From IMG/VR virus record IMGVR_UViG_3300042970_000016: 22,967 bases of DNA. One strand, written 5' to 3'. Of the stretch, positions 6,082 through 22,967 are shown one piece after another (position 1 is the stretch's first letter; each line of letters starts with the position of its first letter). Position numbers and translations under genes: made by a program. The notes below the pieces were generated by a model. The model made no database searches and was not told the DNA's origin. It saw only the letters and a list, made by a program, of their open reading frames with translations. This stretch comes from a virus.

Positions 6082-6324
6082 TTAACTCTCGACGTCCTCA
6101 GAACTCTCTGATGAAGCGTCACCCTGTAGGAACTGCATGATCTCCTCAAAGCTTCTGCTGCTGTCCTCAACGGCCTTCATGAGTTCCTTCTTCTGAAGCT
6201 CGTCCCGTTTATTCATCATCTGCTCCAGCTTGTTGGCCTCAGCTTCATAGTGTTCCCTGGCCTTACTGACAACCTGCTTCTGTTCCTCAATCCGTTCATC
6301 AAGAGAACGCCTTGCCCTTGCCAT
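6082..6324 (-). CDS. Small coiled-coil passenger protein (80 aa; DUF4315/'ErpK'-like pattern)
   Basis: GGAGG RBS at 6332-6336; ATG overlaps the transposase TGA (TGATG); heptad-rich E/K/Q sequence; stop codon falls inside the terminal IR. Confidence 0.75.
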   Translation of the reverse strand: MARARRSLDERIEEQKQVVSKAREHYEAEANKLEQMMNKRDELQKKELMKAVEDSSRSFEEIMQFLQGDASSESSEDVES

Positions 6325-8033
6325 CACACTGCCTCCTTCATCTTTTCTGACAGTTTATCGCTGATCTCATTAGCCCACTTTTTGATGTTGACCTCATTGA
6401 TCCCAAATGCTTTCAGGATCTCTTTCTGCGTCGCGGTAACTGCATAGTTCAGCCGGTATCTGTGATCTGCCTGCTGGATAATCTCGATCTTCTCCAGTTC
6501 CCGGATCGCGGCAGGTACGGTCATGTAGTTTTCCTTCTTATCGTTCTTTTTCTCCTGCAGGGTCAGCTGATGATAAATGCGGTTTCTGACTATCAGCGCC
6601 ACGAACTCAACAAAGATCCGGGCATCCTCCGTTTCATTCATATGTGCCCGCATCGTCCTGTTGCCAAGGAAGGACTTGTCTGCCCGGAACAGCTTCTCCG
6701 AGACGTCACGGTTCTTGTAAAGCTCCAGGGCTTTTGAAGCGGTCATTTCAGACGAAGTGATGATAACAAAGTATCCACAGAAGCTGATCTCCCTGTTGAT
6801 GACATCCGTTTTCTCTCTGGCATACATGAACTTCTCGTCCTTCTGGCCTTCGTGCCAGTAGATCAGGTCGAAGTAGTGTTCCAGAGCCCGGTCAAAACGA
6901 ATGGCCTGATTCTGATGTTTCCCAAAGTATTTCGCCAGCCGGGCAATCTTCCCTGTCAGTTCGCTCTTCTCAGAGGCCTTCCTGCTGTCGCTGTAATAAA
7001 TATGGAAGTATCGGTCCTTCTCATCGGATGGGAACAGCTTCTGATGAACCGTCATGCCATAGACTTTATAACCCCGGATGCTCTTTGAATAGTCATCCTC
7101 AAAACTGCCTTTGTTGGCGATCACGATCTCATGGACCAGTGACTTCATCCCTTTCATCATGATGATGAAATCGAAGCTATTCTTGTCCATGTAGCGGATG
7201 TTTTCTCTGCTGAAGTATCCCCGATCGAGAATAAATCCAACCTCATGATAGCCATAGCCTTTGGCCTTCTCCAGCATGATCTGCAGCTGGGATACATCCG
7301 TGATGCTGCCTGGATACTCTTCATAAAAGAGAGGTACCGTATTGGTGTTGTTATAAGCAACGGAATAGTTGAACACTGGCTTTCCGTTGTCCTGTTTCGG
7401 ATGGCCGAATTCTACGCATTCCAGGTCACCTGCCTGACAATTCTTGTTCGTGGAATCATAAGAAATATAGATCTTCTCACGATGATCCTGTTTCTCATTC
7501 CATGTGTTCTGGAAGACGATGATCTGGTCAGGTGTGATTCCCTTCAGGAAATCACAGACTTTGGAATCGCTGTAAACATGCATTCCTTCGGTAAAGAGCG
7601 GGTGATTGAATGCGTACTCAGGATAATACTGGGCGACATTCCCTTCCGTCACAAGTGTATAGGCGGCAAGATCCAGGAACAGACCGCTGTCCCTGCCAAT
7701 CAGTGCGTCGATTGTCTGATCAAGTTTGTATTCCTGCAGGATCTTACGGACAACAACAAATGTTCCGATCCTGAGACATCCGCTTCTCTCTGGCGGCTTA
7801 ACCTCTTCAGGAACAGAATCCGGAAAAAATCGAATGAAGTTTGCATTCGGATACATTTGTGTGTCATCACCGGGATCAACCTTCCCTATAGATGTATCCT
7901 TTCCCTGGCTGTACTTCTTCTCCGATATGTAAGTACGTCCGTACGTATAGTAAACGTAGGTTGTCCCCTTGATCGTTTTCCTCGTGATTCCAGTCTGAAG
8001 ATCAGGTATTTTCACTGTATATTTCTGATACAT
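6324..8033 (-). CDS. IS1634-family DDE transposase (569 aa)
   Basis: ISYDSTN, FGHPKQD, YPGSITDV, ILDRGYFS, YKNRDVSEKLFR (YREK-like) motifs; N-terminal KTIKGTTYVY; GGAGG RBS. Confidence 0.88.
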   Translation of the reverse strand: MYQKYTVKIPDLQTGITRKTIKGTTYVYYTYGRTYISEKKYSQGKDTSIGKVDPGDDTQMYPNANFIRFFPDSVPEEVKPPERSGCLRIGTFVVVRKILQEYKLDQTIDALIGRDSGLFLDLAAYTLVTEGNVAQYYPEYAFNHPLFTEGMHVYSDSKVCDFLKGITPDQIIVFQNTWNEKQDHREKIYISYDSTNKNCQAGDLECVEFGHPKQDNGKPVFNYSVAYNNTNTVPLFYEEYPGSITDVSQLQIMLEKAKGYGYHEVGFILDRGYFSRENIRYMDKNSFDFIIMMKGMKSLVHEIVIANKGSFEDDYSKSIRGYKVYGMTVHQKLFPSDEKDRYFHIYYSDSRKASEKSELTGKIARLAKYFGKHQNQAIRFDRALEHYFDLIYWHEGQKDEKFMYAREKTDVINREISFCGYFVIITSSEMTASKALELYKNRDVSEKLFRADKSFLGNRTMRAHMNETEDARIFVEFVALIVRNRIYHQLTLQEKKNDKKENYMTVPAAIRELEKIEIIQQADHRYRLNYAVTATQKEILKAFGINEVNIKKWANEISDKLSEKMKEAV

Positions 8034-8990: not shown

Positions 8991-10262
8991 GTAGATCGAA
9001 TAATTAATAGCTGATACATTATATTGCTTTTGCCTCATCCTCGGAAATTTCGTCTAAACGATATTTCCAGTGATAGACAATCGGCTCACGGTTTACTTCT
9101 TCAAAATACAAATAGATTCTCTGGGCTAATTCTTCTTTGGATTTCACTCGTATGCCCCGCAGCATCTGCTTTGTCATTTTGCTGAAGAAGCTTTCTATCA
9201 GATTCAGCCAGGAACCGTGTTTAGGAGTAAATACAAATTTAAAGCGCCCTTTTGGCCGCGTTGCAAGATAATTCTGTACCTCTTTTGATCTGTGAGCGGA
9301 GTGATTATCACAAATGATTCGAATGACATCGCCTTCAGGATACATTTCATCAAACTTCCTGAGCAGGATGATAAAATCAGAGCTTTTGTGAGTCTCACTT
9401 ACTACTGGTACAGCTTTTCCTGTCAGCAGGTCGATCCCTGCAAGGAGAGACAATGTTCCCAAACGTTTATATTCATAATCACGATTCACCGTCCCGTTTT
9501 CTCTGGTAGGGCGAAGATCATCGGCAGTAGTTGCAATTGCCTGAATCCCCGGCTTTTCATCACAGGAAACCGTGTGTACCATAGGTCCCTCTTCCGGGAT
9601 GATGATATTTCCATCTTCATCAAACTGCATCGATACCTGCTTATAGACAACAAGAACATCGTGCATTTTCCTGTCGAAATCGGGGTCTCGCTTTTCACAA
9701 TAATACTTGATCTTGAAGGGCTTGATCTCGTTCCGCTTCAGGATCTTCTGCAGCATTGGCTTGGTCATCGTCTTTAAACGTGGAAACCCAGCCCCTTCTG
9801 CATGGTTCTGGATATGCTGATGCAGGTTCTTAAGCGTCCATAATTCCTGTGAATATCCAAGGTCTGCAGGCCGCTGGCAGGCAATATTGATAATCCACGC
9901 AACCGCATCATCCGTGATCTCGACCGGTCTTCCGGATCGTTGATTATCGAATAGTGCAAGCTCCGTTCCGCCTTCCCTGTATTTATCAAGGCATAGCCGG
10001 ACAGTATTGACACTGAGATCATAGATCTTTGCAATATCCCTGATCGGCGTGCCATTGGATTTATCGAGTAATATATGAGCGCGGATAACGATCTGTGCCT
10101 GAATGGTACGTTGTTTGATGAGTGACTGGAGATACTCACGATCACCATCTTTAAGGGCTAACATGGTTGCAGCTCTGGACATAATAGAGGCCTCTCTTTC
10201 TTAGTCTCTATTATACGCTATGAGTAGCAACAATTGTATCATTTATTTAATTTATGTAGTAC
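8991..10262 (-). mobile_element. IS630-family insertion sequence (~1272 bp)
   Basis: CTAG at both ends (8988-8991, 10262-10265), consistent with TA duplication in a CTAG target; imperfect IRs CTAGTA-N18-TGATACA at both ends. Confidence 0.88.
9019..10182 (-). CDS. IS630-family transposase (387 aa)
   Basis: N-terminal HTH, RSGRP, WTLKNL, catalytic SCDEKPG / ICDNHSAH / SWLNLIESFFS, EYKRLGT motif; a hairpin (10181-10189/10206-10214) covers the RBS region. Confidence 0.93.
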   Translation of the reverse strand: MSRAATMLALKDGDREYLQSLIKQRTIQAQIVIRAHILLDKSNGTPIRDIAKIYDLSVNTVRLCLDKYREGGTELALFDNQRSGRPVEITDDAVAWIINIACQRPADLGYSQELWTLKNLHQHIQNHAEGAGFPRLKTMTKPMLQKILKRNEIKPFKIKYYCEKRDPDFDRKMHDVLVVYKQVSMQFDEDGNIIIPEEGPMVHTVSCDEKPGIQAIATTADDLRPTRENGTVNRDYEYKRLGTLSLLAGIDLLTGKAVPVVSETHKSSDFIILLRKFDEMYPEGDVIRIICDNHSAHRSKEVQNYLATRPKGRFKFVFTPKHGSWLNLIESFFSKMTKQMLRGIRVKSKEELAQRIYLYFEEVNREPIVYHWKYRLDEISEDEAKAI

Positions 10263-10683: not shown

Positions 10684-10899
10684 ATGGGCCTTAGCTACAA
10701 GAAACTTTGGAAGCTATTAATTGATAAGGACATGAAGAAAAAAGACTTGCAGCAGCTGGCAGGCATTAGCTCCACTTCTATCACGAAATTAGGGAAAAAT
10801 GAAAATGTAAATACAGAGATCATAGAAAAAATATGTTCCGCTCTACATTGCGACGTGAGCGACATTATGGAAATGACGGAGGATAAAGAAAATGGCTGA
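10684..10899 (+). CDS. Cro/C1-type (HTH_26-like) regulator, probable controller of the R-M operon
   Basis: LSYKKLWKLLIDKDMKKKDL...ICSALHCDVSDIME; GAGG RBS; overlaps the hsdM start. Confidence 0.92.
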   Translation: MGLSYKKLWKLLIDKDMKKKDLQQLAGISSTSITKLGKNENVNTEIIEKICSALHCDVSDIMEMTEDKENG

Positions 10900-11395
10900 C
10901 AAGAACACCGCCAATATTGGCTTCGAAAAACAGATATGGGACGCGGCATGTGTCCTGTGGGGACATATCCCGGCAGCGGAATACAGAAATGTCATCATCG
11001 GACTTATTTTTTTGAAATATGTTTCAACGGCATTTGATAAAAAATACAAGCAGCTTGTTGCGGAGGGAGATGGATTCGAAGATGATCCGGATGCCTATCT
11101 GGAAGATAATGTATTCTTTGTTCCAGAGGATGCCCGCTGGGATAAGATTGCCGCTGCAGCCCATAAACCGGAGATTGGCACTGTAATCGACAACGCTATG
11201 CGGGCAATTGAAGATGACAATAAGAAACTCAAAAATGTCCTTCCTAAAAACTATGCCAGCCCGGATCTGGATAAACAGGTATTAGGCGACGTTGTTGACC
11301 TCTTCACCAATATGGATATGAGCGAAACGGAGGACAACAGGGAAATCTTCCTACCGAAAATGATACAATTTAACGCTTTAAAAATGTGTGCGTGA
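10892..11395 (+). pseudogene. hsdM: Type I restriction-modification M subunit, N-terminal domain only
   Basis: IGFEKQIWDAAC..GHIPAAEYRNVIIGLIFLKYVS, NVFFVPEDARW, IDNAMRAIE..NKKLKNVLPK; similarity stops near 11341, just before the expected D(L/V)LGxxYEY and GxFYTP motifs; no SAM-binding or NPPF motif. Confidence 0.9.
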
Positions 11396-12597: not shown

Positions 12598-14178
12598 TCA
12601 GGCCTTGATTTCCATTCCGTTCCGGAAGGTGACCCGGATGTCGTCCTTGCTGTAGACCGTGATGAAATCGACAAGGCTCTGGAACTGTGCCGCGTCGAAT
12701 TCCGTCACCAGGTCAGTCTGCTTCCGCAGGGTGTCAAGGAACTGCCGGATCGATGAGCGTGCAAGCTCCTTTCTGGAGATCTCGTTCTCGACTTCCGTGA
12801 GGTTCTTCTTCGCCGTGTTGAAGCGCTCGGTAAGGGAGTCGTATCGTTTCTGATATGCTTCCTGATCCTGCGGAGCAACGGCGTTCTGCCGGATCTCTTT
12901 CTGGACAAGGTCGGCGGCAACGTTCATCTCGTCCTCGTATTCACGTTCTTTTTCCTTGAGGGCGTCAGTGCTGTAGAGCGGTCCGGCGAGGATCTCCTCG
13001 AAGTCGGAGAGTATGGACTCCTTGTCTTTGAACAGTGTGTTCACCGCCGAGATGTATTTTCCCTTGATCTCATCATCCGTAAGGACCGGAGTCGTGCATT
13101 TCTCTCTGCCGTCGTACTTGTGATTGCACCGCCAGATCATCCGGCGGTATTTGTCGTTGGAATGCCAGACCTTGGAGCCGTACCAGCTTCCGCACTGCCC
13201 GCATTTGATCTTGCCGGAAAAAACATGCACGCCGCTGTGGCGGTTCCTGCCCGGGCAGCGGCGTTTCAGTTCGTCCTGCACCTTGTCGAAGATTTCCGGG
13301 TCGATGATTGCTTCGTGATCCTGTTCCACGTAGTACTGTGGGACCTCTCCCTCGTTGACCTTTTTCTTTTTGGTAAGAAAGTCGACGGTAAAGGATTTCT
13401 GCAGAAGGGCGTCGCCCTTGTATTTCTCATTGGAGAGTATGGCTTTCACTGTTCCCGATGGCCACTGCTTCTTACCTGTCGGAGAGGGGATCCCCTCATC
13501 CGTCAGTTTCGACGCGATTCCATACGGCGTCATTCCTTCCATGAACATCCGGTAGATCCGCTTTACAAGTCCGGCCTGTTCCTGATTTACAACCAGACTG
13601 CCATCCTGCCCACGGTCGTAACCAAGAAAACTCTTGAACGGAACTGACACCTTGCCGTCGGCGAACCGCTTTCTTTGGCCCCATGTGCAGTTTTCAGAGA
13701 TGCTGCGGCTTTCTTCCTGGGCGAGCGAGGACATGATCGTGATGAGAAGTTCTCCCTTACCGTCGAAGGTCCAGATGTTCTCTTTCTCGAAATAGCACTC
13801 GACACCTTTTTCCTTGAGTTCCCGGATCGTAGTAAGGCTGTCGACAGTGTTCCGGGCGAACCGGCTGACGGACTTCGTGACGATAAGATCAATCTTGCCG
13901 TCAAGCGCGTCCGCGACCATCTGCTTGAAACCTTCACGGTGCTTGGTGCTTGTTCCGGTGATGCCTTCATCCGTGTAAACGTTGACGAATTCCCAGTCAT
14001 CACGGCCTTTGATGTATTTCGTGTAGTAATCGATCTGAGCCTCATAGCTCGTGAACTGCTCGTCGTGATCGGTCGAGACCCGGGCGTAGGCGGCAACCCG
14101 CCGGCGCTTGTTTTCACCGATCAGTTCACTGGTATGAGGCTTGAGGATCGCTGGTATTTTGGTGATCTGTTTGCTCAT
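12598..14178 (-). CDS. Large serine recombinase (526 aa) with Zn ribbon and coiled coil
   Basis: AAYARVST catalytic Ser, DEGITGT, KSVSRFARN, LAQEESRSISEN, FLGY, ILSNEKYKGD, HEAIID, FSGKIKCGQCG...WRC...C, long coiled coil. Confidence 0.95.
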   Translation of the reverse strand: MSKQITKIPAILKPHTSELIGENKRRRVAAYARVSTDHDEQFTSYEAQIDYYTKYIKGRDDWEFVNVYTDEGITGTSTKHREGFKQMVADALDGKIDLIVTKSVSRFARNTVDSLTTIRELKEKGVECYFEKENIWTFDGKGELLITIMSSLAQEESRSISENCTWGQRKRFADGKVSVPFKSFLGYDRGQDGSLVVNQEQAGLVKRIYRMFMEGMTPYGIASKLTDEGIPSPTGKKQWPSGTVKAILSNEKYKGDALLQKSFTVDFLTKKKKVNEGEVPQYYVEQDHEAIIDPEIFDKVQDELKRRCPGRNRHSGVHVFSGKIKCGQCGSWYGSKVWHSNDKYRRMIWRCNHKYDGREKCTTPVLTDDEIKGKYISAVNTLFKDKESILSDFEEILAGPLYSTDALKEKEREYEDEMNVAADLVQKEIRQNAVAPQDQEAYQKRYDSLTERFNTAKKNLTEVENEISRKELARSSIRQFLDTLRKQTDLVTEFDAAQFQSLVDFITVYSKDDIRVTFRNGMEIKA

Positions 14179-15830
14179 GACTTATTGCTCCTGTATTTTT
14201 CATGCTTGTATTTCCTTGTTATCTCGTGACCATCCCGGAAGTGAAAAGTGATCGACCAGTGATTTATCGTCGCGTAATTTATCGCCTCATTCATTGCATC
14301 CTCGCTAAACTCCGGCAGATCAAGAACATCACAGACCAGCTGTTTCATTGTGCCTTCTTCCATTTTGGAGTTTCTGCAGTTCCGGTTGTGAGGACAACCC
14401 CATATTCTTCGTACAGTTCCGTCCTTGCAGGTGAAAGAATGGACGCGGTAATTGTTTCCGCATAAGCCACAGCGGATAAATGTAGTGAAAGCAGAGGAAT
14501 CTTTGAAATGCATACGGCAGCTTCGTGTTCTCATACGTTCAGACCACATGGCACGATTCTCATCAGTCCAGTAATCCTGATGCGCGTCTGATGTCCATTG
14601 CCGGGTGATAAGCTGTCCGTCCATCATGTGAAAGACCAGGGTATGGTTTTTTTGAACTTCGATCCAGTCAACGTTCTGGAGAAAGGAGTCCTCGTCAAAT
14701 TCAGTTGTCCCTAGAACTTCAGCACAGGTATTTTCAAGAGCTCTTTGAGGAACCCATTCGGAATCCGGACACGTTTGATCACTGTGAACCTTGCGTCCGC
14801 AGATCCAGTAGGCAAGGGGAGACGCGGGCGGTTTTCTTTTAACCAGCTGATGCACATAGCTTGTTCCGCATATTCCGCATTTGAGTTTGGAAGTAAAGCA
14901 GCATGTGTTTATGCCGGGAATGCCGTGTATACCTGCCTTGCTGCGACGCTTTTGTTCTTCCTGCACCGCTTCAAAGGTTTCCTTATCGATTATTGCTTCG
15001 TGATCGTTTTCAATGACATATTTCGTAAGCTCGCCATTGTTAGGGCGGCTTTCATGTGATTTGAAATCGGGAGAATAGGTTTTCTGAAGGATCATGGTTC
15101 CTGTGTAGGTGACGTTTCTGAGGACATTTGAGATACTTGTCGCACTCCAGCTTTCTCCGTTGGCGGCTATGATGCTGTCCTTATTAAGATCGGTATAAAT
15201 ACTTCGCTTGCTTTTTCCGGAAAGGTATTCACGGTAGATTCTTCGGACTACTTCCGCCTCTTCAGGAATTACGATCAGCTTTTTCTCTTTCCAGGCATAT
15301 CCATAAGTCCGTGGGGATGAATGTGGTTCTCCCTGTTCAAAGCGCTTGCGGATTCCCCATTTTATATTTTCCGATATGCTGCGGCTTTCTTCCTGCGCAA
15401 ACGACGCAAGCAGGGTAAGCATGAGCTCTCCATCATCAGAGAGTGACCGGATGTTTTCCTTTTCAAACCGGACCTCGACACCGATGTCTTTCAGATGCCG
15501 GACCGTTTGCAGAAGATCAACGGTGTTTCTGGCAAAACGGCTGATGCTCTTGGTAAGAACAATGTCGATCTTTCCGGCATCGCAGTCAGCGATCAGCCGC
15601 ATGAAATCCGGACGTTTTTCAGCATTGGTTCCGCTGATGCCTTCGTCGGCGTAAATCCCTGCGAACTCCCACTGCGGATTGCTCTGGATCAGCTCGCTGT
15701 AACGGGATACCTGAGCCGAGAGGGAATGGTGCAGCCGCTCTGTTTCCATGGACACACGGCAGTAAGCCGCGACCTTTTTCCGTTCCGGAAGGACCGGTTT
15801 CGATTTTTTGATTTCTGTTATTTTCTTCAT
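14175..15830 (-). CDS. Large serine recombinase (551 aa) with duplicated Zn-ribbon module and no long coiled coil
   Basis: AAYCRVSM, DEGISGT, KSISRFARN, FAQEESRSISEN, YGY, LRNVTYTG; FTSKLKCGICG..WIC..C and FTTFIRCGLCG..WGC..C; ATGA overlap with the next gene. Confidence 0.93.
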   Translation of the reverse strand: MKKITEIKKSKPVLPERKKVAAYCRVSMETERLHHSLSAQVSRYSELIQSNPQWEFAGIYADEGISGTNAEKRPDFMRLIADCDAGKIDIVLTKSISRFARNTVDLLQTVRHLKDIGVEVRFEKENIRSLSDDGELMLTLLASFAQEESRSISENIKWGIRKRFEQGEPHSSPRTYGYAWKEKKLIVIPEEAEVVRRIYREYLSGKSKRSIYTDLNKDSIIAANGESWSATSISNVLRNVTYTGTMILQKTYSPDFKSHESRPNNGELTKYVIENDHEAIIDKETFEAVQEEQKRRSKAGIHGIPGINTCCFTSKLKCGICGTSYVHQLVKRKPPASPLAYWICGRKVHSDQTCPDSEWVPQRALENTCAEVLGTTEFDEDSFLQNVDWIEVQKNHTLVFHMMDGQLITRQWTSDAHQDYWTDENRAMWSERMRTRSCRMHFKDSSAFTTFIRCGLCGNNYRVHSFTCKDGTVRRIWGCPHNRNCRNSKMEEGTMKQLVCDVLDLPEFSEDAMNEAINYATINHWSITFHFRDGHEITRKYKHEKYRSNKS

Positions 15831-15880: not shown

Positions 15881-16051
15881 TCAACCATTATCTGAGAATA
15901 AACTACCCAAAGATGGCCTGTATTTTCGGAGCAGAATTGTATCAATTTCATCGTACTCTTCCTTGGTGATCGTACCGGAAGAGAGGAGTGCCTTTGCCAC
16001 AGTGAGACTCGCCTGATAGCGGCGCTCGGCCTCGAATTTCTCTTTACTCAT
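15881..16051 (-). CDS. SHOCT-like small protein (56 aa) associated with the recombinases
   Basis: GGAGG RBS at 16060-16064; AKALLSSGTITKEEYDEI motif; true start is inside the longer track ORF. Confidence 0.75.
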   Translation of the reverse strand: MSKEKFEAERRYQASLTVAKALLSSGTITKEEYDEIDTILLRKYRPSLGSLFSDNG

Positions 16052-16466
16052 CATCAACGCCTCCTTTGAATCTTGCCTTGATATAGCAGGCGTGGGAGCA
16101 GTATTTCCGGTGCGCATTGCCGTAGGCAGAGAACGGTCTGCCGCAGCATGCGCAGGTGAAGTCATATACCGCTTTCCGATGCACCTGGTCCAGATGGCTG
16201 TTCCACCATTCCTGACGGCAGGCACTGCTGCAGAAGCGGATATGTTTTCTTCCCGGAATCTGCCGGACCGGTTTTCCGCAGTTCGGACAGAATTCTGTGG
16301 GTTTGTTTGGCGTTTCCTGCGACGGAACACGTTTTCCAGCGAGGCCGTTTCTACGGCAGTAGGACTTGACGGTATTCTTGGAAAGGGAGAGGGCTTCAGC
16401 TATTGCGTCGTAGCTCATTCCTTTCGTACGTAGTTCATATATGTTTCTTTTTTGATCGGATGTCAT
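16044..16466 (-). CDS. HTH plus Zn-finger protein (often annotated as RNA polymerase sigma-70-like)
   Basis: GGAGG RBS at 16476-16480; GMSYDAIAEALSLSKNTVKSYCRR HTH; CPNC..FCSSAC and CACC..YCSHAC fingers. Confidence 0.85.
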   Translation of the reverse strand: MTSDQKRNIYELRTKGMSYDAIAEALSLSKNTVKSYCRRNGLAGKRVPSQETPNKPTEFCPNCGKPVRQIPGRKHIRFCSSACRQEWWNSHLDQVHRKAVYDFTCACCGRPFSAYGNAHRKYCSHACYIKARFKGGVDDE

Positions 16467-16583
16467 TTGCAGCCACCTCCTACTGTTTCTTGGAGATGAG
16501 ATCCTCAAATTGACGACAGACCTGAACGGTATTGTTCCGTCAATGATCTCTTCTCATAGGTAAACAGAAAAAGGAGGGGCATA

Positions 16584-16765: not shown

Positions 16766-17728
16766 TTACTTGACTCTGATTTTCCATCCCGCTTGGATTT
16801 GATTCACATTCCGGATCAGAGCAGGGTTAAGCTTCTGGATCGCGAATATTGTTGTGCCGTACTTCCGGGCAATTGCGGAAAGTGTATCGCCAGACCGGAC
16901 GGTGTAATAGACAGGGGACGGCTTACTCTGAGCGTGGAGCAGCTCATTCACCTTGGCCTGCACAGAGTCGTAGCTGTATCCGGCAGCAGAAAGACGGTTT
17001 TTCCTGTCGTCACCGTTTCCCCAGGAACCACTCAACACTTCGTGAGCGATTTCATCTACGCTCTTTCTTATCGGCGCTGATACCGGAGCAGGAGTCTGCT
17101 GCTTTGCGTATCCGTTGAAGCCGCCTGTTTTAATGGTGGAAGGGTAGTCGATATAGGAAATATCCATATCGACGTTTCCGCTGATTCCGTTTACGGATCC
17201 GGTGGAAGAGTACTGCCAGATTCCGTACGCCCCTCCATAGGTACATTTCGAAGCATACTGTGCTACCCAATGGGTGAATGGCGTAAGCTTCGAATCGTCC
17301 AGCCGGTCACGGAATCCGGAATAGGTGGAGCTGTAGATGCCCGCAAAGTATCCGGCAGCTTCCAACGCTCTGCAGAATGCAATCGCCGCTGCTGTCGCAC
17401 CAGCCTTTGCTACCGGAGCTGTTGCCTCGACATCGATATATACCGGATACTCGAGCTGTTTTCCCGCAAGCTGGCTGAGGAAGCGCTGAGCGTCTGCCTT
17501 ACCCGCGTCTGCAGAAGTGCATGCCGGACCGACAAAATAATACGCGCCGATTGCAATACCGTTTGCTTTGGCACCCCGATAGTTTTCTTCCCATCTGGGA
17601 TCTGTGTAGAAGCCAGCATCCGACCCACCGGCCTTGATAATGGCAAACTGAATACCTGCCGCCTTCACTTTCGCCCAATCGATATGCCCCTGCCAGCGGC
17701 TGACATCAATACCTTTGAATTCACTCAT
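16766..17728 (-). CDS. Endolysin: GH25 muramidase + CW_7 (Cpl-7) repeat + LysM
   Basis: GIDVSRWQG, YIDVE, WQYSSTG, VDMD; KSVDEIAHEVLSGSWGNGDDRKNRL; YTVRSGDTLSAIARKYG; GGAGGA RBS before ATG 17728. Confidence 0.95.
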   Translation of the reverse strand: MSEFKGIDVSRWQGHIDWAKVKAAGIQFAIIKAGGSDAGFYTDPRWEENYRGAKANGIAIGAYYFVGPACTSADAGKADAQRFLSQLAGKQLEYPVYIDVEATAPVAKAGATAAAIAFCRALEAAGYFAGIYSSTYSGFRDRLDDSKLTPFTHWVAQYASKCTYGGAYGIWQYSSTGSVNGISGNVDMDISYIDYPSTIKTGGFNGYAKQQTPAPVSAPIRKSVDEIAHEVLSGSWGNGDDRKNRLSAAGYSYDSVQAKVNELLHAQSKPSPVYYTVRSGDTLSAIARKYGTTIFAIQKLNPALIRNVNQIQAGWKIRVK

Positions 17729-17744
17729 GATCTTCTCCTCCTTC

Positions 17745-17785
17745 AAAATAAGAAAGGCCCTCCGAGCAGTAACGCCCGGAGAGCC
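17745..17785 (-). terminator. Intrinsic terminator between holin and endolysin
   Basis: GGCTCTCCGGGC-gttact-GCTCGGAGGGCC-TTTCTTATTTT: 12-bp stem, fully paired only on the minus strand (two G-U). Confidence 0.7.
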
Positions 17786-17837: not shown

Positions 17838-18107
17838 TCACGGATTGGTCTTTGTGAGCTGCTTGTAGATCTGGTTGACACCAGTCGCTGCAAGGCCGGA
17901 CACGATGCCAACGGCAAGGGCATTGATCACGTCCTTTGCCGGGAAATCCGGCATCAGATACAGTCCCGCGACACCGAGCACCGCGCCCACGCATCCGCAG
18001 ATCACCGGGATGAGTTCATCCTTCACGGAGCCAGCCGCCTTGCAGGCAATACCGATGAGATACGCGATCACCGTGATTGCCGCCACACTTGCGATTCCAA
18101 AGTCCAT
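17838..18107 (-). CDS. Phage holin (89 aa, A118-like)
   Basis: Three hydrophobic segments, IPVICGCVGAVLG and GIVSGLAATGVNQIYKQ motifs; GGAGGTG RBS; upstream of the endolysin. Confidence 0.88.
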   Translation of the reverse strand: MDFGIASVAAITVIAYLIGIACKAAGSVKDELIPVICGCVGAVLGVAGLYLMPDFPAKDVINALAVGIVSGLAATGVNQIYKQLTKTNP

Positions 18108-18109
18108 AG

Positions 18110-18436
18110 CTACTTCACCTCCTTCTTCTTGTCTGCCGTAAGCGGCAGTTCCAGACACTTTTTGTACAGGGACTCCCCGGTGCCGTTTCCACCGAGCGCC
18201 TTGTACGGCTTGTACAGGTACTCGAGGTTGCTCCGGTCTTCCGGAGAGCACCATCCCCGGGCAATAAAAAAGCTGCAGGCCTGATAGATCCGGTCGTGCA
18301 GCAGTGCCATCATTCCTTCTTTGATTTCGTCGTTCTCCTGTTTTCGCCGGAGCAGCGTCCGCCAGAGCCATGTGATGATGGCTATGATCAGGGCAAAGAG
18401 CTCCTGAATCCAGTAGCGCAAGATAAAGTCTATCAA
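18110..18436 (-). CDS. Lysis-cassette membrane protein (holin-associated, YKALGGNG family)
   Basis: One N-terminal TM helix, ALLHDRIYQ and LYKPYKALGGNGTG motifs; GGAGGTG RBS favours TTG at 18436. Confidence 0.8.
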   Translation of the reverse strand: MIDFILRYWIQELFALIIAIITWLWRTLLRRKQENDEIKEGMMALLHDRIYQACSFFIARGWCSPEDRSNLEYLYKPYKALGGNGTGESLYKKCLELPLTADKKKEVK

Positions 18437-18450
18437 TGGAATCACCTCCC

Positions 18451-19290
18451 TTAATCTTCTACATACACCATGAGATACTTGTACTTGAGCGTTGCCTGAT
18501 TGTATGCCATCAGGGTCGTCTCATCATTGGCCACCCCGGAAGCAAACTTGAAATGTCCGATCTGGTCTGCATCCGGATAGCTTGTCGTACCATTGTCTCC
18601 GTTATCCACGATGCATTTACCAGTCGTTGCGTAGAACCGGAACCCATTGTAGGTATCCATATCGGTCGACAGGGTTCCATCGGACAGCTGCACCTCGACA
18701 ACCTTCAGACGGATATCCGGATCGCTCTTGCCGATGGAAGCCTTGCTGAGATGCACGGCACTGTTTGCCTTGTAGGTAACGAATCCATTTCCATCATCCA
18801 CATCAAGGGCAAGTTTGGTTACCGCAGCGACATCTTTGATGTGATCGAAGGAAGGTTTGGTTACCTCGGTGACATCTCCGCTGGATCCTCCTGAGCCAGA
18901 GGTCGGCAGAGTCAGAACCTGCTTGGTACCCGCTGAGGAACGGATCGTAAGCTTTCCATCGCTCAGTTCAAATGTGTAGGTGGTATCCGTAAAGACTGCT
19001 CCTTCCGGTACATCCGTTTTCACGGTATGTCCTCCCAGAGCATCTGTGTTTGCCTTCACCGCAGTTTTCAACTCGGAGTCATCGTAGGCAGTATCCGTAA
19101 AGACCGCATCTGCGGGAACATCGCAGGCCACGGTATGGCCGTTCACCTTGGCGGCATTGTCCACGACTCCATCACCGTCGGCATCAAACTGGGAGAACTC
19201 TTTTGTATTGTCGATCAGCTGATTTACCGCTTCGCAGAGCCGCTGGATCACCTTATGCACTCCACCGTACTGGATCTTCTTAATCGACAT
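18451..19290 (-). CDS. Phage tail-fibre/accessory structural protein (279 aa) with an internal repeat
   Basis: GGAGG RBS before ATG 19290; repeated GHTVxxDVPxxAVFTDT; Gly/Ser linker; last gene before the lysis cassette. Confidence 0.65.
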   Translation of the reverse strand: MSIKKIQYGGVHKVIQRLCEAVNQLIDNTKEFSQFDADGDGVVDNAAKVNGHTVACDVPADAVFTDTAYDDSELKTAVKANTDALGGHTVKTDVPEGAVFTDTTYTFELSDGKLTIRSSAGTKQVLTLPTSGSGGSSGDVTEVTKPSFDHIKDVAAVTKLALDVDDGNGFVTYKANSAVHLSKASIGKSDPDIRLKVVEVQLSDGTLSTDMDTYNGFRFYATTGKCIVDNGDNGTTSYPDADQIGHFKFASGVANDETTLMAYNQATLKYKYLMVYVED

Positions 19291-20071
19291 TGAAGTACGC
19301 CTCCTCCCGCTTCTGTGCACCGGCATTTCGGGAGGCATACCTTTCGAGATCGGTGAGGATCTGATCGGTTGTATTGAGGCGGTCCACCAGTTTGTAACTG
19401 TCGATGTACGGATCAAAGTACGAAAGATTCTCCGGTTCGATATACGAGGTGTCCCTCATGTCGTGAATGCATTTCCTGCACTGGCTTGTGGCTGCCATTT
19501 CTGCTTCCCGGTTTGTGGCAAACCAGTGTGCATCGTGCCACTTGCAGTTCCAGTAGCAGTCCGTATTCGGGATCAGGATGTAGCGGTACTTGTTTGGCAG
19601 AGTCTTCACCGCATCAAGATGACGGGAGAACCAGTAAAACAGCACGATATGGTCGTACATGGAGAGATCCCGGCTTTTTAAGTCTGATTCCGTCAAAGCA
19701 CTGGTAATAGAGAGCGTGACCGAGAGATCCGGATGTCTGCTCTTTGCTGCTATCGCAAGTGCATCGTTACTGATCGTGAAGATCCGGATGCCAAGGCCGT
19801 AATACTTCTCCAGCACATCCAGTGTGGCATTCCTCTGCATCAGAACACAGAGCGGAAGCCCGAGCTGCTGCAGACATTTCAGGCGCAGGACGTATTCGTC
19901 ATAGGATTTCGGGTATTCCTCCCTTGTCTCGATGTCCTGCCTTGTGCTCATTGCATCCTCCTTCCATGCCGGGAGATAGATGCAGCGGATGTACGAAAAA
20001 AGCTCTCGTCTGCGGGAGAGCTTTGGAATAAAGTCATAGGAAAAGTTGTATGGTACTTCGTACTGCTTCAT
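19280..20071 (-). CDS. Peptidase U32-family-like (Fe-S, TIM-barrel) protein
   Basis: GIRIFTISNDALAIAAKSRHPDLSVTLSIT, LIPNTDCYWNCKWHDAH, C198/C201, YIEPENL and IDSYKLVDR match, in order, the U32 patterns GVDAxxVxD..YPxLxxxxS, NxxCxxxC..H, IRPEDL and KxxGR. Confidence 0.7.
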   Translation of the reverse strand: MKQYEVPYNFSYDFIPKLSRRRELFSYIRCIYLPAWKEDAMSTRQDIETREEYPKSYDEYVLRLKCLQQLGLPLCVLMQRNATLDVLEKYYGLGIRIFTISNDALAIAAKSRHPDLSVTLSITSALTESDLKSRDLSMYDHIVLFYWFSRHLDAVKTLPNKYRYILIPNTDCYWNCKWHDAHWFATNREAEMAATSQCRKCIHDMRDTSYIEPENLSYFDPYIDSYKLVDRLNTTDQILTDLERYASRNAGAQKREEAYFNVD

Positions 20072-21459
20072 CAGGCATCCTCCTTATCCGTCAGTGTGTA
20101 GGTGATCTTCATGGTCTGTGAGGCATTCTTCGTGACCGGAGAGGACAGGTTGTTAATCGTGCCAAGGTAGGCACATCGGAGCGCCGTCCGGATCCGGTCA
20201 TTGTCGTAATAGCCGTCGTAATGATAGGTTGCGAGGATCTTCCCATCGGAATACAGGATCGGCGAAATCTCAATTGCAGCTCCGTCAACCGCCTCCTCAG
20301 AATGAGAAGCATCCGGATAGAGGAATCCGGTCCTGTAATAGGTGTTTCCGTCTTTCTGGTACTTATACTGGTACTGAACGCCACCGTTGTAGAGTATCGG
20401 CGTCATTCCGTCGAAAATTCCGCTGTTGTCGAAGGTAAAGATCTTGATATCAACTGTGTTGGACAGGTTCACGATGTAGATACTATGTGCATCATAAGCT
20501 TTGGCGTAGAGGTAACCTTTGTTAAGCACAATGGAGTAATCAGTCCGCGAAGCCATATGTACCCCGGCCAGCGTAATCACTTCCTCCGGTTGCCTCTCGA
20601 AAGACAGATCAGAAAGCTTATACTTCGTGATGTAGAGCTTTGCGTCATCCTTTTCATTCCCCTCATCGTAATAATAGTTGTAGTAGGTATTGCCGTAAGA
20701 GGTATAACTGCTGACCCGGTTGTTTTGCGTGATGAGATAGAGGTAGCCATCAGTACCGGGCATCCAGTATTTTGCAGGTCCGATGTTGCTGAAATTCTTA
20801 TAGTCGGGAAGCTCCAGCGTCGCGACGGTCTCATACGGAAGAGTAAACGAGCCATAAGTCTGGTCTGCCACCTTCACGGCATACGGGTCAAATCGACCAC
20901 GCTGGACGGTGACACCATCCGAGTTCAGCCAGTACACAAACTCATCCTTTACGAGAAATGGTCTCCCGTTATGTTCTTTGTTTTCGATGGTATCCATGTC
21001 ACAATAAAAGTCACCGCAGAGCTGTCTCTGGAAGGGATTCACCCCGGCATAGGCACTCGTCAGGGCCACTGACTGGATGGTGCCGTTTGCCTGCGCGGTA
21101 CCGAAGTCCCAGACGGAAACATAGCCTTTATCGGTCTTATGCGTCTCAATGGCATTTAGGGAACCGCGCATCGAATCATCGGTATTGGTATCCCGGGAAG
21201 CATAGCCGACCAGCTTCGCCTCCGTCGGGAAGTTCGTATTGTTCACATCTTCGGTAAGCTTTCCATCAAAAAGCAGGATGCCGCCGAGGGCATTCTTCGC
21301 GATAGGGAAGACATTGCCGTTCATCGATCTTCCGATCATGGTCTGGAAAGCAATCAGCTCCTGTACCGCATTGGTGACAAGATTGTCTTTCTCATATTTG
21401 AGTTCGCGCTCGCCGGTCTTCGCATTGAAAAGCTCGATTTTGGTATGTCCTTTGATCAT
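20071..21459 (-). CDS. Phage tail/baseplate or receptor-binding protein (462 aa)
   Basis: Termini KGHTKIELFNAKTG..NLVTNA, VWDFGTAQANGTI and LGTINNLSSPVTKNASQTMKITYTL recalled from tail-module proteins, flanking a Tyr-rich beta-strand region. Confidence 0.7.
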   Translation of the reverse strand: MIKGHTKIELFNAKTGERELKYEKDNLVTNAVQELIAFQTMIGRSMNGNVFPIAKNALGGILLFDGKLTEDVNNTNFPTEAKLVGYASRDTNTDDSMRGSLNAIETHKTDKGYVSVWDFGTAQANGTIQSVALTSAYAGVNPFQRQLCGDFYCDMDTIENKEHNGRPFLVKDEFVYWLNSDGVTVQRGRFDPYAVKVADQTYGSFTLPYETVATLELPDYKNFSNIGPAKYWMPGTDGYLYLITQNNRVSSYTSYGNTYYNYYYDEGNEKDDAKLYITKYKLSDLSFERQPEEVITLAGVHMASRTDYSIVLNKGYLYAKAYDAHSIYIVNLSNTVDIKIFTFDNSGIFDGMTPILYNGGVQYQYKYQKDGNTYYRTGFLYPDASHSEEAVDGAAIEISPILYSDGKILATYHYDGYYDNDRIRTALRCAYLGTINNLSSPVTKNASQTMKITYTLTDKEDA

Positions 21460-22967
21460 TCTTCCACCTCTTTCGTATAGATCTGAAGGTCCGTGATGTG
21501 TCCTTTCTCGTGGATGATGACCTTCATCTGTATGGTTCCTTTGAGCATCTCATTCCATTTGTCTGAATCGATGACTGCCATTGCCGGGCCAAACATTCCG
21601 TAGGACGCCTTCGAGGTATCCGGCGTGATCCAGCCATTGGCATATTCCAGCCAGTTTACTCCATGATCAAAGGAGACGAGGAAGTTTACATTGTTACTGT
21701 CACAGACGGAAGTTACCTGTAAGATAGATTCCACTGTAAGGTCTTTCGTTGTCATCTCGGCGATTGTTACTCCGTCTTTCAATCTCCACTCACCATCTTT
21801 GATCTCGATCTTCTCACTGTCATAGGACAGATCGGAAGGACGGAGAGTGTTAAATCGGTGCAGGAACTTCACCGCGCCAATGGTGCCAGCGATTGGCTGC
21901 AGTACATTCGTAAGAGACATCGATGGAACGATGTCGGAAATGCCTGCTGTCTCTGGCGAAAGCAGATCAAAAATCACCGAAGCATCAAAACTACGGTATA
22001 CCGGAAACAGGTTCATCTCCGGAACCGTATCGTAAACCGTGATTGTGCCATCCCATGCGCCGCTTCCTGCAAGACCCTGTCCTGCCATGTATGCCCTTGC
22101 GTCTCCCCGGGCGATATGACAGCTGCCACCGACCATCGAGAGCCAGACCTCAAAGTTCCCGGTGAGGTTTGCCGTACTGTTCCAGGTGAAAAGAAGGTGC
22201 AGAAGATGTGTCCCATCCGGCATTGTTTCCACCGGGACGTAGTCCTTGACCTCCTCCCCGTTCAGGTAGTAGGTGACAGTCATCACCACATCGGTATCAG
22301 AGAGAAGTTCGTCGGTTTCCGTCTCGGTCGTGTCGAGTGTCAGCTTGATCTCCGCGTGGAAGTCGATGTGGGTGTTCTTTACGGTGATATAGCGGACATC
22401 GATGATCTTTGCCTTTGCCGCATCCGCGATGTCATAATCCGCAGCATTCTGGTAATCGTAATAGCGGATGTAGTCCTGATTTTCATTTGAGGAGAGGATG
22501 CCTTGCAGGTTTTTGTCCGTCTTGGATTTCGCCGATGCCAGAGCCGGGTCCTGTCCTACCCCCTGCATCGTAAAGGACTGGTTGTAGTTGAATGTGAACT
22601 TCGTCATGCAGAAGAGCTTGTCTTTATCGGCAAGCCCATCGGTAAAGCGGAATACATCCATGAGGTCGTAGGCAGGGTTTCCGATCAATTCTGCCTTGAA
22701 CGGCACATAATCAACTTGCGAAAGTGCCGTAAGAATTGCCTTCCGCTGTGCATCCTTCTTCTCATCCACGCCATACTGGAGGAAGGGATCCGAGCCGATG
22801 TTGTAGGTAAGGCCATCGTCCACATCAAGGGCATAGTAAGATGTGGTTTTTGCGTCGATATTCACGACGGAGAGGCCGGTGTATCTGGTAGAGAAATCGG
22901 AGAACTCACACCCGGTAAACCGGTGCTCTGTATCAATCTCGTCAACCACCGTCTGATCGTAGGCACG
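21456..22967 (-). CDS. Phage minor tail protein, 5'-partial
   Basis: Frame is open to the window edge (RAYDQTVVDE...); YVPFKAELIGNPAYDLMD tail-spike-type motif; ATGA overlap with the next gene. Confidence 0.7.
   Translation of the reverse strand, partial: RAYDQTVVDEIDTEHRFTGCEFSDFSTRYTGLSVVNIDAKTTSYYALDVDDGLTYNIGSDPFLQYGVDEKKDAQRKAILTALSQVDYVPFKAELIGNPAYDLMDVFRFTDGLADKDKLFCMTKFTFNYNQSFTMQGVGQDPALASAKSKTDKNLQGILSSNENQDYIRYYDYQNAADYDIADAAKAKIIDVRYITVKNTHIDFHAEIKLTLDTTETETDELLSDTDVVMTVTYYLNGEEVKDYVPVETMPDGTHLLHLLFTWNSTANLTGNFEVWLSMVGGSCHIARGDARAYMAGQGLAGSGAWDGTITVYDTVPEMNLFPVYRSFDASVIFDLLSPETAGISDIVPSMSLTNVLQPIAGTIGAVKFLHRFNTLRPSDLSYDSEKIEIKDGEWRLKDGVTIAEMTTKDLTVESILQVTSVCDSNNVNFLVSFDHGVNWLEYANGWITPDTSKASYGMFGPAMAVIDSDKWNEMLKGTIQMKVIIHEKGHITDLQIYTKEVEE

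Follow-up and report, generated by a model that had tools for sequence, protein, structure and literature searches.

The window considered here is a stretch of 22,967 nucleotides from the IMG/VR virus record IMGVR_UViG_3300042970_000016. Its right half covers the late region of a temperate prophage of siphovirus type, read on the minus strand, and the prophage host is an anaerobic gut or rumen bacterium. We analysed a gene for a 263-amino-acid protein of the U32 superfamily that lies within the distal-tail operon of this region. The gene, its start and its putative metal site are placed as follows.

19280..20071, minus strand: gene of a U32-superfamily triosephosphate isomerase (TIM) barrel protein, 263 amino acids, single domain (open reading frame and translation).
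20069..20085, minus strand: translational-coupling junction, the Shine-Dalgarno box AAGGAGGA followed by TGATG (read from the sequence).
19469..19558, minus strand: putative metal-site segment C172-x3-C176-x5-H182(W183)-x15-C198(-x2-C201), in the beta7 loop and the next helices (conservation, alignment and model secondary structure).

The open reading frame (ORF) at 19280-20071 (minus strand) is translated into 263 amino acids without stops. Base 20071 is common to its ATG and to the TGA of the upstream ORF of 462 amino acids, and the Shine-Dalgarno box occupies positions 20078-20085. At the other end, the ATG of the downstream fibre-like gene (19290) falls 11 nucleotides within the 3' end of the U32-like gene. 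Both overlaps had been noticed in an earlier reading of this DNA, made from the letters and ORFs alone (the sequence-only reading), and are confirmed. No promoter-like or terminator-like sites were seen flanking the gene on its own strand, and no promoter-like sites were seen on the minus strand of the tail-gene region; weaker hairpin matches lie within the U32-like ORF (19658-19642) and within the upstream tail gene. The overlapping stop and start codons and the lack of such flanking sites bear out the further claim of that reading, that the gene is wired into the late tail operon. A moron with its own promoter was considered and rejected, as no promoter-like site was found.

The ratio of nonsynonymous to synonymous substitution rates (dN/dS) is 0.05-0.15 when the gene is compared with homologues of 62-94% identity. 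Homologues of the protein fall into 51 clusters when grouped at 90% identity, and 708 relatives at 50% identity were retrieved by a profile search of 1.84 billion representatives. The GC content of the gene and that of its third codon positions (GC3) equal those of the adjoining genes. Given the low dN/dS, the many homologues and the matching composition, this is not a chance ORF. The gene is a coupled cistron of the distal-tail operon and is under strong purifying selection. The protein has cysteines at positions 30, 66, 75, 172, 176, 198 and 201, histidines at positions 113, 141, 151, 179, 182 and 203, and a calculated isoelectric point (pI) of 6.1.

No matches of the 263-amino-acid protein were observed in Pfam, PHROG or NCBIfam even at E<=1, and sequence and profile searches of PDB returned noise only. 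The AlphaFold2 model, made from an alignment with 39 homologues, is a (beta-alpha)8 barrel with a predicted local distance difference test (pLDDT) score of 96.5 and a predicted template modelling (pTM) score of 0.92. The sequence-only reading had recommended a structure search with such a model. In VIA-align, the U32 protein Mk0906 (5d88_A) was ranked first of 48,161 PDB chains with Z 15.8, root-mean-square deviation 3.1 Å and 203 aligned residues; the other TIM barrels that follow it have Z of at most 12.4, that is, 3.4 Z units lower. In Foldseek, 5d88 was fifth by E-value and had the best TM-score among the matches listed.

The same relationship is seen in profile comparisons. We used an alignment of the close family (A1), one of the diverse family (A2), and one of seven canonical U32 proteins drawn from genomes with related prophages (A3). 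Alignment of A2 with A3 by hhalign gave a probability of 95.7% (E 1e-8, 191 columns), and A1 alone with A3 gave 58% (E 1e-4). The A2 profile matches canonical U32 genes of 410-830 amino acids in Clostridia genomes with E-values of 1e-9 to 1e-11. The most distant of the 708 relatives exceed the Pfam PF01136 gathering score of 22.4 bits (P0181, 26.7 bits; P0189, 30.1 bits). Among the ESM Atlas neighbours are one cluster that bears the name 'collagenase-like protease, PrtC family' and another with PF01136 on 16% of its members. Judged by the predicted model and the profiles together, the protein belongs to the U32 superfamily, has its TIM-barrel fold and shares ancestry with canonical U32 proteins, and the assignment to U32 from raw sequence was right at the superfamily level.

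The likeness is remote, and structure and profile-profile comparison were needed to reveal it. Even a small profile of canonical U32 proteins failed to retrieve 5d88 itself from PDB. A PF01136 scan of three host genomes found 2-3 canonical U32 genes elsewhere in these genomes and did not report the prophage copy of the U32-like gene. A search of all six frames of the window with the family and canonical U32 profiles revealed no second U32-like gene. Two other identities were tried and rejected. Radical S-adenosylmethionine (SAM) enzymes were discarded, as there is no PF04055 match, and C172-x3-C176 lies near the C-terminal third with no cysteine two residues on. Glycosidases of clan GH-A were discarded, as the invariant N169, and not a glutamate, ends beta7, and no invariant glutamate occurs at the beta4 and beta7 positions.

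Residues C172, C176, H182, W183 and C198 do not vary among 39 homologues, and they change rarely or not at all in 60 further representatives (25-43% identity). H179 and C201 vary across the family, and C201 is retained in close relatives only. All six U32-like residues named in the sequence-only reading were thus placed exactly; C172, C176, H182 and C198 proved conserved, whereas H179 and C201 did not. In the profile alignment C172 corresponds to the first cysteine of canonical U32 proteins, C176 to the second, and C198 to the third or the fourth. Also aligned are an aspartate after beta4, a serine after beta5 (LSITS versus HxSTQ) and the beta8 motif (YKLVDR versus canonical FKIEGR, K-x3-R). 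Conserved residues follow strands beta1, 2, 4, 5, 7 and 8 of the barrel, on its catalytic face. Since these positions match in the alignment, the catalytic face and three cluster ligands appear to be retained, with a histidine in place of the fourth ligand.

The canonical motif CX6CX15CX3C, which is shown by the host copies, is the reported [4Fe-4S]-binding motif of UbiU, UbiV and most U32 families (PMC6747719; PMC11574389). Validated U32 clusters with displaced ligands are CX6CX16CX38C in UbiU and CXnCX12CX3C in UbiV (PMC6747719), and this makes a [4Fe-4S] site with three cysteines and a histidine plausible. From sequence conservation, the Cys3-His set is predicted to coordinate a metal. The likeliest centre is a [4Fe-4S] cluster, sensitive to oxygen and with a single ligand other than cysteine; alternatively, the set may form a Cys3His zinc site.

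The protein was compared with the characterised U32 oxidases (PF01136; UbiU, UbiV, TrhP, RlhA; structure 5D88). Common to both are the barrel, the profile homology, the beta4 aspartate, the beta5 serine, the beta8 K-x3-R, two cysteines in the beta7 loop with a third about 20 residues later at the [4Fe-4S] ligand site, and occurrence in anaerobes. However, the phage family has the spacing C-x3-C-x5-H-x15-C with an invariant His-Trp pair instead of CX6CX15CX3/4C, and the protein is one domain of 263 amino acids with no C-terminal extension and no paralogous partner nearby, encoded inside a tail operon. In U32 oxidases a second cluster comes from a paralogue or an extra cysteine-rich domain, as in UbiU-UbiV, TrhP1-TrhP2 and RlhA (PMC11574389), whereas the phage protein has neither a second paralogue in the window nor an extra cysteine-rich domain. 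The cellular U32-like proteins of 320-370 amino acids (P0181, P0189) bridge the phage family to PF01136. They share with it the N-x2-C-x3-C-x5/6-H and YKLVDR-type motifs, but have an additional C-terminal C-x3-C-x2-C-x-C tail, reside in chromosomal operons and fall on the canonical-U32 side of the tree. The 263-amino-acid protein is a member of a phage-centred U32-like family of putative metalloenzymes that lies outside all curated models. This unannotated and largely phage-borne branch of U32 (708 representative clusters), with its altered Cys3-His set and minimal architecture, is new.

The genes around the U32-like gene, all on the minus strand, are listed in the order of transcription.

21456..22967, minus strand: C-terminal 503 amino acids of a 709-amino-acid distal tail protein, start outside the window (phrog_23052).
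20071..21459, minus strand: 462-amino-acid tyrosine-rich distal tail protein, constant upstream partner of the U32-like gene (phrog_19291, model and synteny).
18451..19290, minus strand: 279-amino-acid fibre-like protein, start overlapping the end of the U32-like gene (ORF reading).
18110..18445, minus strand: 111-amino-acid membrane protein ahead of the holin (phrog_4105).
17838..18107, minus strand: holin (PF16079 and phrog_1129 on residues 89-176 of a long ORF).
16766..17746, minus strand: endolysin with GH25, CW_7 and LysM (family matches).

A full-length homologue of the 709-amino-acid protein in another locus (L053) matches phrog_6616 'tail protein' and follows the tape measure gene. The AlphaFold2 model of the 462-amino-acid protein (pLDDT 90.5) is a beta-sandwich with an insert resembling a five-bladed propeller. 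It matches the tail chain 9h4p_BD of Haloferax virus HFTV1 (Z 8.5) and also olfactomedin and glycoside hydrolase (GH43, GH130) propellers (Z 8-9); on the strength of this model it looks like a receptor-binding distal tail protein. The fibre-like protein (18451-19290) contains a DxDxDG calcium-loop-like motif and two VP-x2-AVFTDT-x-Y repeats. The true start of the holin is likely the methionine that gives 89 amino acids, as in its 89-amino-acid homologues. Strong terminator-like hairpins bracket the endolysin gene, one just upstream of its start (17785-17756) and the other just past its stop (16738-16719).

Between the endolysin and recombinase genes, a 154-amino-acid protein (16044-16508, minus strand) has a sigma-70 region 4/HTH_38 N-terminus and a C-terminal half rich in cysteine and histidine, and is possibly a regulator of the phage. 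Two tandem large serine recombinases of 526 and 551 amino acids (Resolvase, Recombinase and Zn-ribbon domains; 12598-15830, minus strand) close the prophage after the lysis cassette. The same pair occurs in sequenced Heliusvirales phages, where it is annotated as DNA invertase and integrase. Adjoining the prophage end is a 167-amino-acid ORF (10892-11395, plus strand) with the HsdM N-terminal domain only, and beside it are two DDE transposase genes (6324-8033 and 9019-10182, both on the minus strand). It appears to be the remnant of a type I restriction-modification methylase gene that insertions have disrupted. Outside the prophage, a 922-amino-acid superfamily-1 helicase (2366-5134, plus strand; Viral_helicase1, AAA_30, UvrD_C_2) is followed by an HTH_38 protein, and this region could belong to another mobile or defence element.

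Close relatives of the U32-like gene were found in 52 IMG/VR loci and eight genome loci. The hosts of the latter are Lachnospiraceae, Bilifractor, an uncultured eubacterium and a Clostridiaceae metagenome-assembled genome, all strict anaerobes, in agreement with the suggestion of the sequence-only reading that this is a phage of anaerobes. Wherever a locus has the gene at 45% identity or more and includes the upstream sequence, a homologue of the 462-amino-acid protein lies directly 5' of it, with overlapping stop and start codons. The order of genes is tape measure, a protein of about 120 amino acids, a 709-757-amino-acid tail protein, the 462-amino-acid homologue and the U32-like gene; in one group of loci an extra protein of 369-392 amino acids is encoded between the 709-757-amino-acid tail protein and the 462-amino-acid homologue. 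Farther 5' are head-closure, tail-terminator and major tail genes. The 3' neighbour varies, being either a fibre gene of 74-465 codons or directly the holin gene.

Three tiers of identity can be seen. The U32-like, 462-amino-acid and 709-amino-acid proteins are respectively 84-94%, 79-93% and 76-86% identical in the closest tier, 61-69%, 55-75% and 53-56% in the middle tier, and 45-51%, 28-56% and 31-50% in the distant tier. The three distal-tail genes thus diverge together, and the U32-like protein is the most conserved in each tier. In a maximum-likelihood tree (a quick IQ-TREE search) all tail-linked copies fall in one clade, with a Shimodaira-Hasegawa-like approximate likelihood ratio test (SH-aLRT) value of 94. 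These copies belong to one clade of Heliusvirales-like Lachnospiraceae phages.

The same tail module also exists without the gene. Four sequenced Candidatus Heliusvirales phages, of Agathobacter, Coprococcus, Lachnospiraceae and Clostridium, have a full-length homologue of the 462-amino-acid protein and no U32-like gene. Their module consists of the tape measure, proteins of 120, about 730, about 365 and about 467 amino acids, holin, endolysin and recombinases. A survey seeded with the 462-amino-acid tail protein gave 60 evaluable viral loci; the U32-like gene lies immediately 3' of the tail protein gene in 18 of these and is missing from the other 42, several of which continue with the fibre, membrane-protein, holin and lysin genes of the window. 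The tyrosine content of the upstream tail protein had been offered in the sequence-only reading as a hint at the substrate. It is 7.7-9.1% in linked homologues versus 7.3-9.2% in unlinked ones, and therefore the richness in tyrosine is uninformative on the substrate and was rejected as its signature.

No match was observed when the 263-amino-acid protein was compared by tblastn with 50,697 deposited phage genomes. Canonical U32 queries against the same genomes gave mostly short unannotated fragments resembling bacterial DNA, and did not locate phage OLB35. The best viral structural neighbour is the 269-amino-acid 'Peptidase' of Escherichia phage OLB35 (A0A3G3MCS7, BFVD model), with TM 0.66, E 2e-9 and 13% identity; its match indicates that short U32-like barrels exist in other phages. 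Further viral scans with cluster A8 and proteins P0053 and P0040, the sister group of the tail clade, returned no matches.

Other clades of the family are found in different surroundings. A 36%-identical copy in a 169-kb phage contig (L048:7974-8816) lies between genes of a DnaB-like helicase and a primase, and a 40%-identical copy in a 435-kb phage contig (L045:8001-8804) precedes a DEAD/ResIII helicase gene. These replication-module sites hint at a nucleic-acid-related role in those clades. In AT-rich contigs of 143-188 kb, the U32-like gene is followed by a radical SAM fragment, and a second radical SAM gene is nearby. In phage contigs of 21% GC (L120/L121:5992-7151), a 113-amino-acid radical SAM-like ORF follows the U32-like gene immediately; this ORF could be a gene fragment or part of a split gene. 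A 33%-identical copy is chromosomal and lies beside an rRNA methylase gene and a patatin gene.

The cellular group of 320-370 amino acids occurs in roughly 50 of 399 Clostridia genomes. Its operons contain three unannotated paralogous proteins, with AraC regulators at 7 of 20 loci and radical SAM genes at 6. One such chromosomal operon is conserved (L101, L102, L105, L107-L109, L111): a U32-like protein of about 345 amino acids, ending in a C-x3-C-x2-C-x-C tail, is followed by three mutual paralogues of about 359, 300 and 311-325 amino acids that belong to no Pfam family, and an AraC-type regulator is encoded divergently.

Rare fusions were observed. Protein P0161 (728 amino acids) consists of a radical SAM domain, a linker and the U32-like domain; together with the cellular loci and the large phage contigs it shows that radical SAM genes, for which the sequence-only reading had proposed a neighbourhood survey, recur near relatives. 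Protein P0123 (507 amino acids) combines the U32-like domain with a weak GT8/glycogenin-like domain (Pfam E 0.0034, PDB E about 0.01). Proteins P0115 and P0126 (about 543 amino acids) have a 250-amino-acid N-terminal domain of no recognisable family before the U32-like domain, and in a Rosetta-stone test the N-terminal half of P0115 had no similarity to the 462-amino-acid tail protein. No fused forms of 596-2000 amino acids were found, which is weak evidence. The recurrent company of the family is anaerobic iron-sulphur (Fe-S) and radical enzymes. As other clades occur in replication modules, next to radical SAM genes and in chromosomes, the chemistry of the family is not tail-specific. The association of homologues with tails, expected by the sequence-only reading, thus held within one clade, where it is constant, but it has a single origin and does not extend to the other clades.

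The best overall explanation, which we hold tentatively and by analogy with characterised U32 enzymes, is that the gene encodes a minimal single-domain U32 metalloenzyme performing O2-independent oxidative chemistry late in infection. Firstly, the set of Cys172, Cys176, His182 and Cys198 would hold a metal centre at the site of the four-cysteine [4Fe-4S] motif of U32 proteins. Secondly, the protein would act as a soluble late enzyme and not as a building block of the tail: the dN/dS of 0.05-0.15, the strongest conservation among the distal-tail genes and the lack of an adaptor domain argue for an enzyme rather than a scaffold. Finally, by analogy with UbiU/UbiV, TrhP and RlhA, the enzyme may oxidise a substrate available late in infection, in a hydroxylation-type reaction that does not require O2. 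The timing and the coupling make a virion or envelope component the more likely target, and for the same reasons a co-expressed distal tail protein or its glycan would be the leading substrate candidate, although this particular assignment is rather doubtful.

Several observations weigh against this explanation. The presence of 42 loci and four Heliusvirales phages without the gene means that it is dispensable for this tail type. As the tail-linked copies form one clade, the linkage is a single event, acquisition followed by vertical descent. Related clades sit in replication modules and bacterial chromosomes. The four-cysteine U32 motif is not present, there being only three invariant cysteines (172, 176 and 198) and His182, and the protein itself matches neither that motif nor the Pfam model. 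Cys3His is also a classic zinc site. Characterised short U32 proteins act as heterodimers of two paralogues (PMC11574389), but the window contains only one U32-like gene. The cofactor, activity and substrate of the protein are predictions from its sequence and model.

One possibility is that the gene is a hitch-hiking accessory enzyme gene, tolerated as cargo at the junction of the tail and lysis genes, whose product modifies a nucleic-acid base (in host or phage RNA, or in phage DNA) or a small molecule. RNA is the substrate of those characterised U32 enzymes that act on macromolecules (PMC11574389; PMC10990095), and the relatives in the replication modules of L048 and L045, 36-40% identical, are compatible with such a role. 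A nucleic acid or a small molecule is still a serious candidate for the target, since the gene is optional in its lineage, its tail linkage arose once and sister clades are found in replication modules. However, late tail-coupled expression is poor timing for an action on replicating DNA or on the translation apparatus, and there is no promoter of its own, unlike in a moron expressed during lysogeny. The protein also lacks the extra C-terminal domains of TrhP/RlhA-type proteins, and its pI of 6.1 is not basic, as is usual for nucleic-acid binders. We consider a non-virion target somewhat unlikely.

A more specific version of the oxidative-enzyme explanation, suggested by the sequence-only reading, is an O2-independent hydroxylase modifying the receptor-binding apparatus of the phage itself. 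It could convert exposed tyrosine side chains of the propeller protein to catechols, for which the phenol hydroxylation attributed to UbiU/UbiV would be analogous chemistry, or create hydroxyl handles for glycosylation. Virion tailoring by the U32-like enzyme is possible, but the findings point to it in no specific way. We found no literature link between U32 proteins and phage tails, and consider this version distinctly unlikely.

Glycosyltransferases encoded beside structural genes glycosylate capsid and tail proteins of mycobacteriophages. They are similar in concept, being the products of optional late enzyme genes next to structural genes, but belong to another enzyme class with another chemistry.

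Structural, chaperone, depolymerase and peptidase readings are less likely. Genes directly 3' of those for receptor-binding proteins often encode their assembly factors, and the U32-like gene adjoins the propeller gene strictly and with overlapping stop and start codons, down to 28% identity of the propeller protein. Thus the protein might be a metal-stabilised (zinc or Fe-S) accessory subunit of the beta-propeller tail protein or its chaperone, with a loose parallel in gpL, the tail-tip protein of phage lambda that carries Fe-S. On the other hand, the conserved residues on the catalytic face of the barrel form the pattern of an enzyme, and the family also occurs far from any tail gene. Moreover, sister phages have homologous propeller proteins and no U32-like gene; its absence from 42 of 60 loci and from the four Heliusvirales phages, all with the cognate tail protein, is not the distribution of a structural or assembly-factor gene. 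A non-catalytic role is therefore unlikely to be the correct one.

It is quite improbable that the protein is a virion-borne or released enzyme attacking a polymer of the host envelope, like tail-associated TIM-barrel glycosidases and glycerophosphodiesterases. The location in the tail module, the weaker fold matches to GH5, GH18, GH113 and glycerophosphodiester phosphodiesterase (GDPD) barrels and phage tail hydrolases, and the weak GT8/glycogenin-like match of the fused relative P0123 are consistent with such a role. However, the U32 match is 3.4 Z units above all hydrolase barrels, and no conserved acid pair is present at beta4 and beta7, N169 ending the latter. Nor does the protein have a signal peptide-like or baseplate-attachment domain, and its conserved Cys/His set is not a feature of glycosidases.

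A true U32 peptidase of the PrtC-like collagenase type, processing a tail protein or a host surface protein, is highly improbable: U32 was originally defined as a peptidase family, a review still allows a putative peptidase subclass (PMC11574389) and the ESM Atlas neighbour cluster carries the name 'collagenase-like protease', but there is no established catalytic mechanism for U32 proteolysis, all well-characterised members are hydroxylation-linked Fe-S enzymes (PMC11574389; PMC6747719; PMC10990095), and the conserved residues of the 263-amino-acid protein coincide with the Fe-S motif.

U32 proteins are emerging as O2-independent Fe-S enzymes for which, to date, just three classes of substrates are known: ubiquinone precursors, U34 of tRNA and C2501 of rRNA. 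Here the genes of one U32-like clade lie inside the tail operon of phages that are relatives of the widespread gut phage order Candidatus Heliusvirales. If the enzyme is active, U32 chemistry would extend to the biology of anaerobe phages, possibly with protein or glycan substrates. If the receptor-binding apparatus is indeed hydroxylated, phages of anaerobes would own an optional virion-tailoring system that alters adsorption. If the protein instead acts on RNA or DNA as a cargo enzyme, its gene would nevertheless represent a novel type of auxiliary gene in phages. The natural phages with and without the U32-like gene provide a ready-made comparison.

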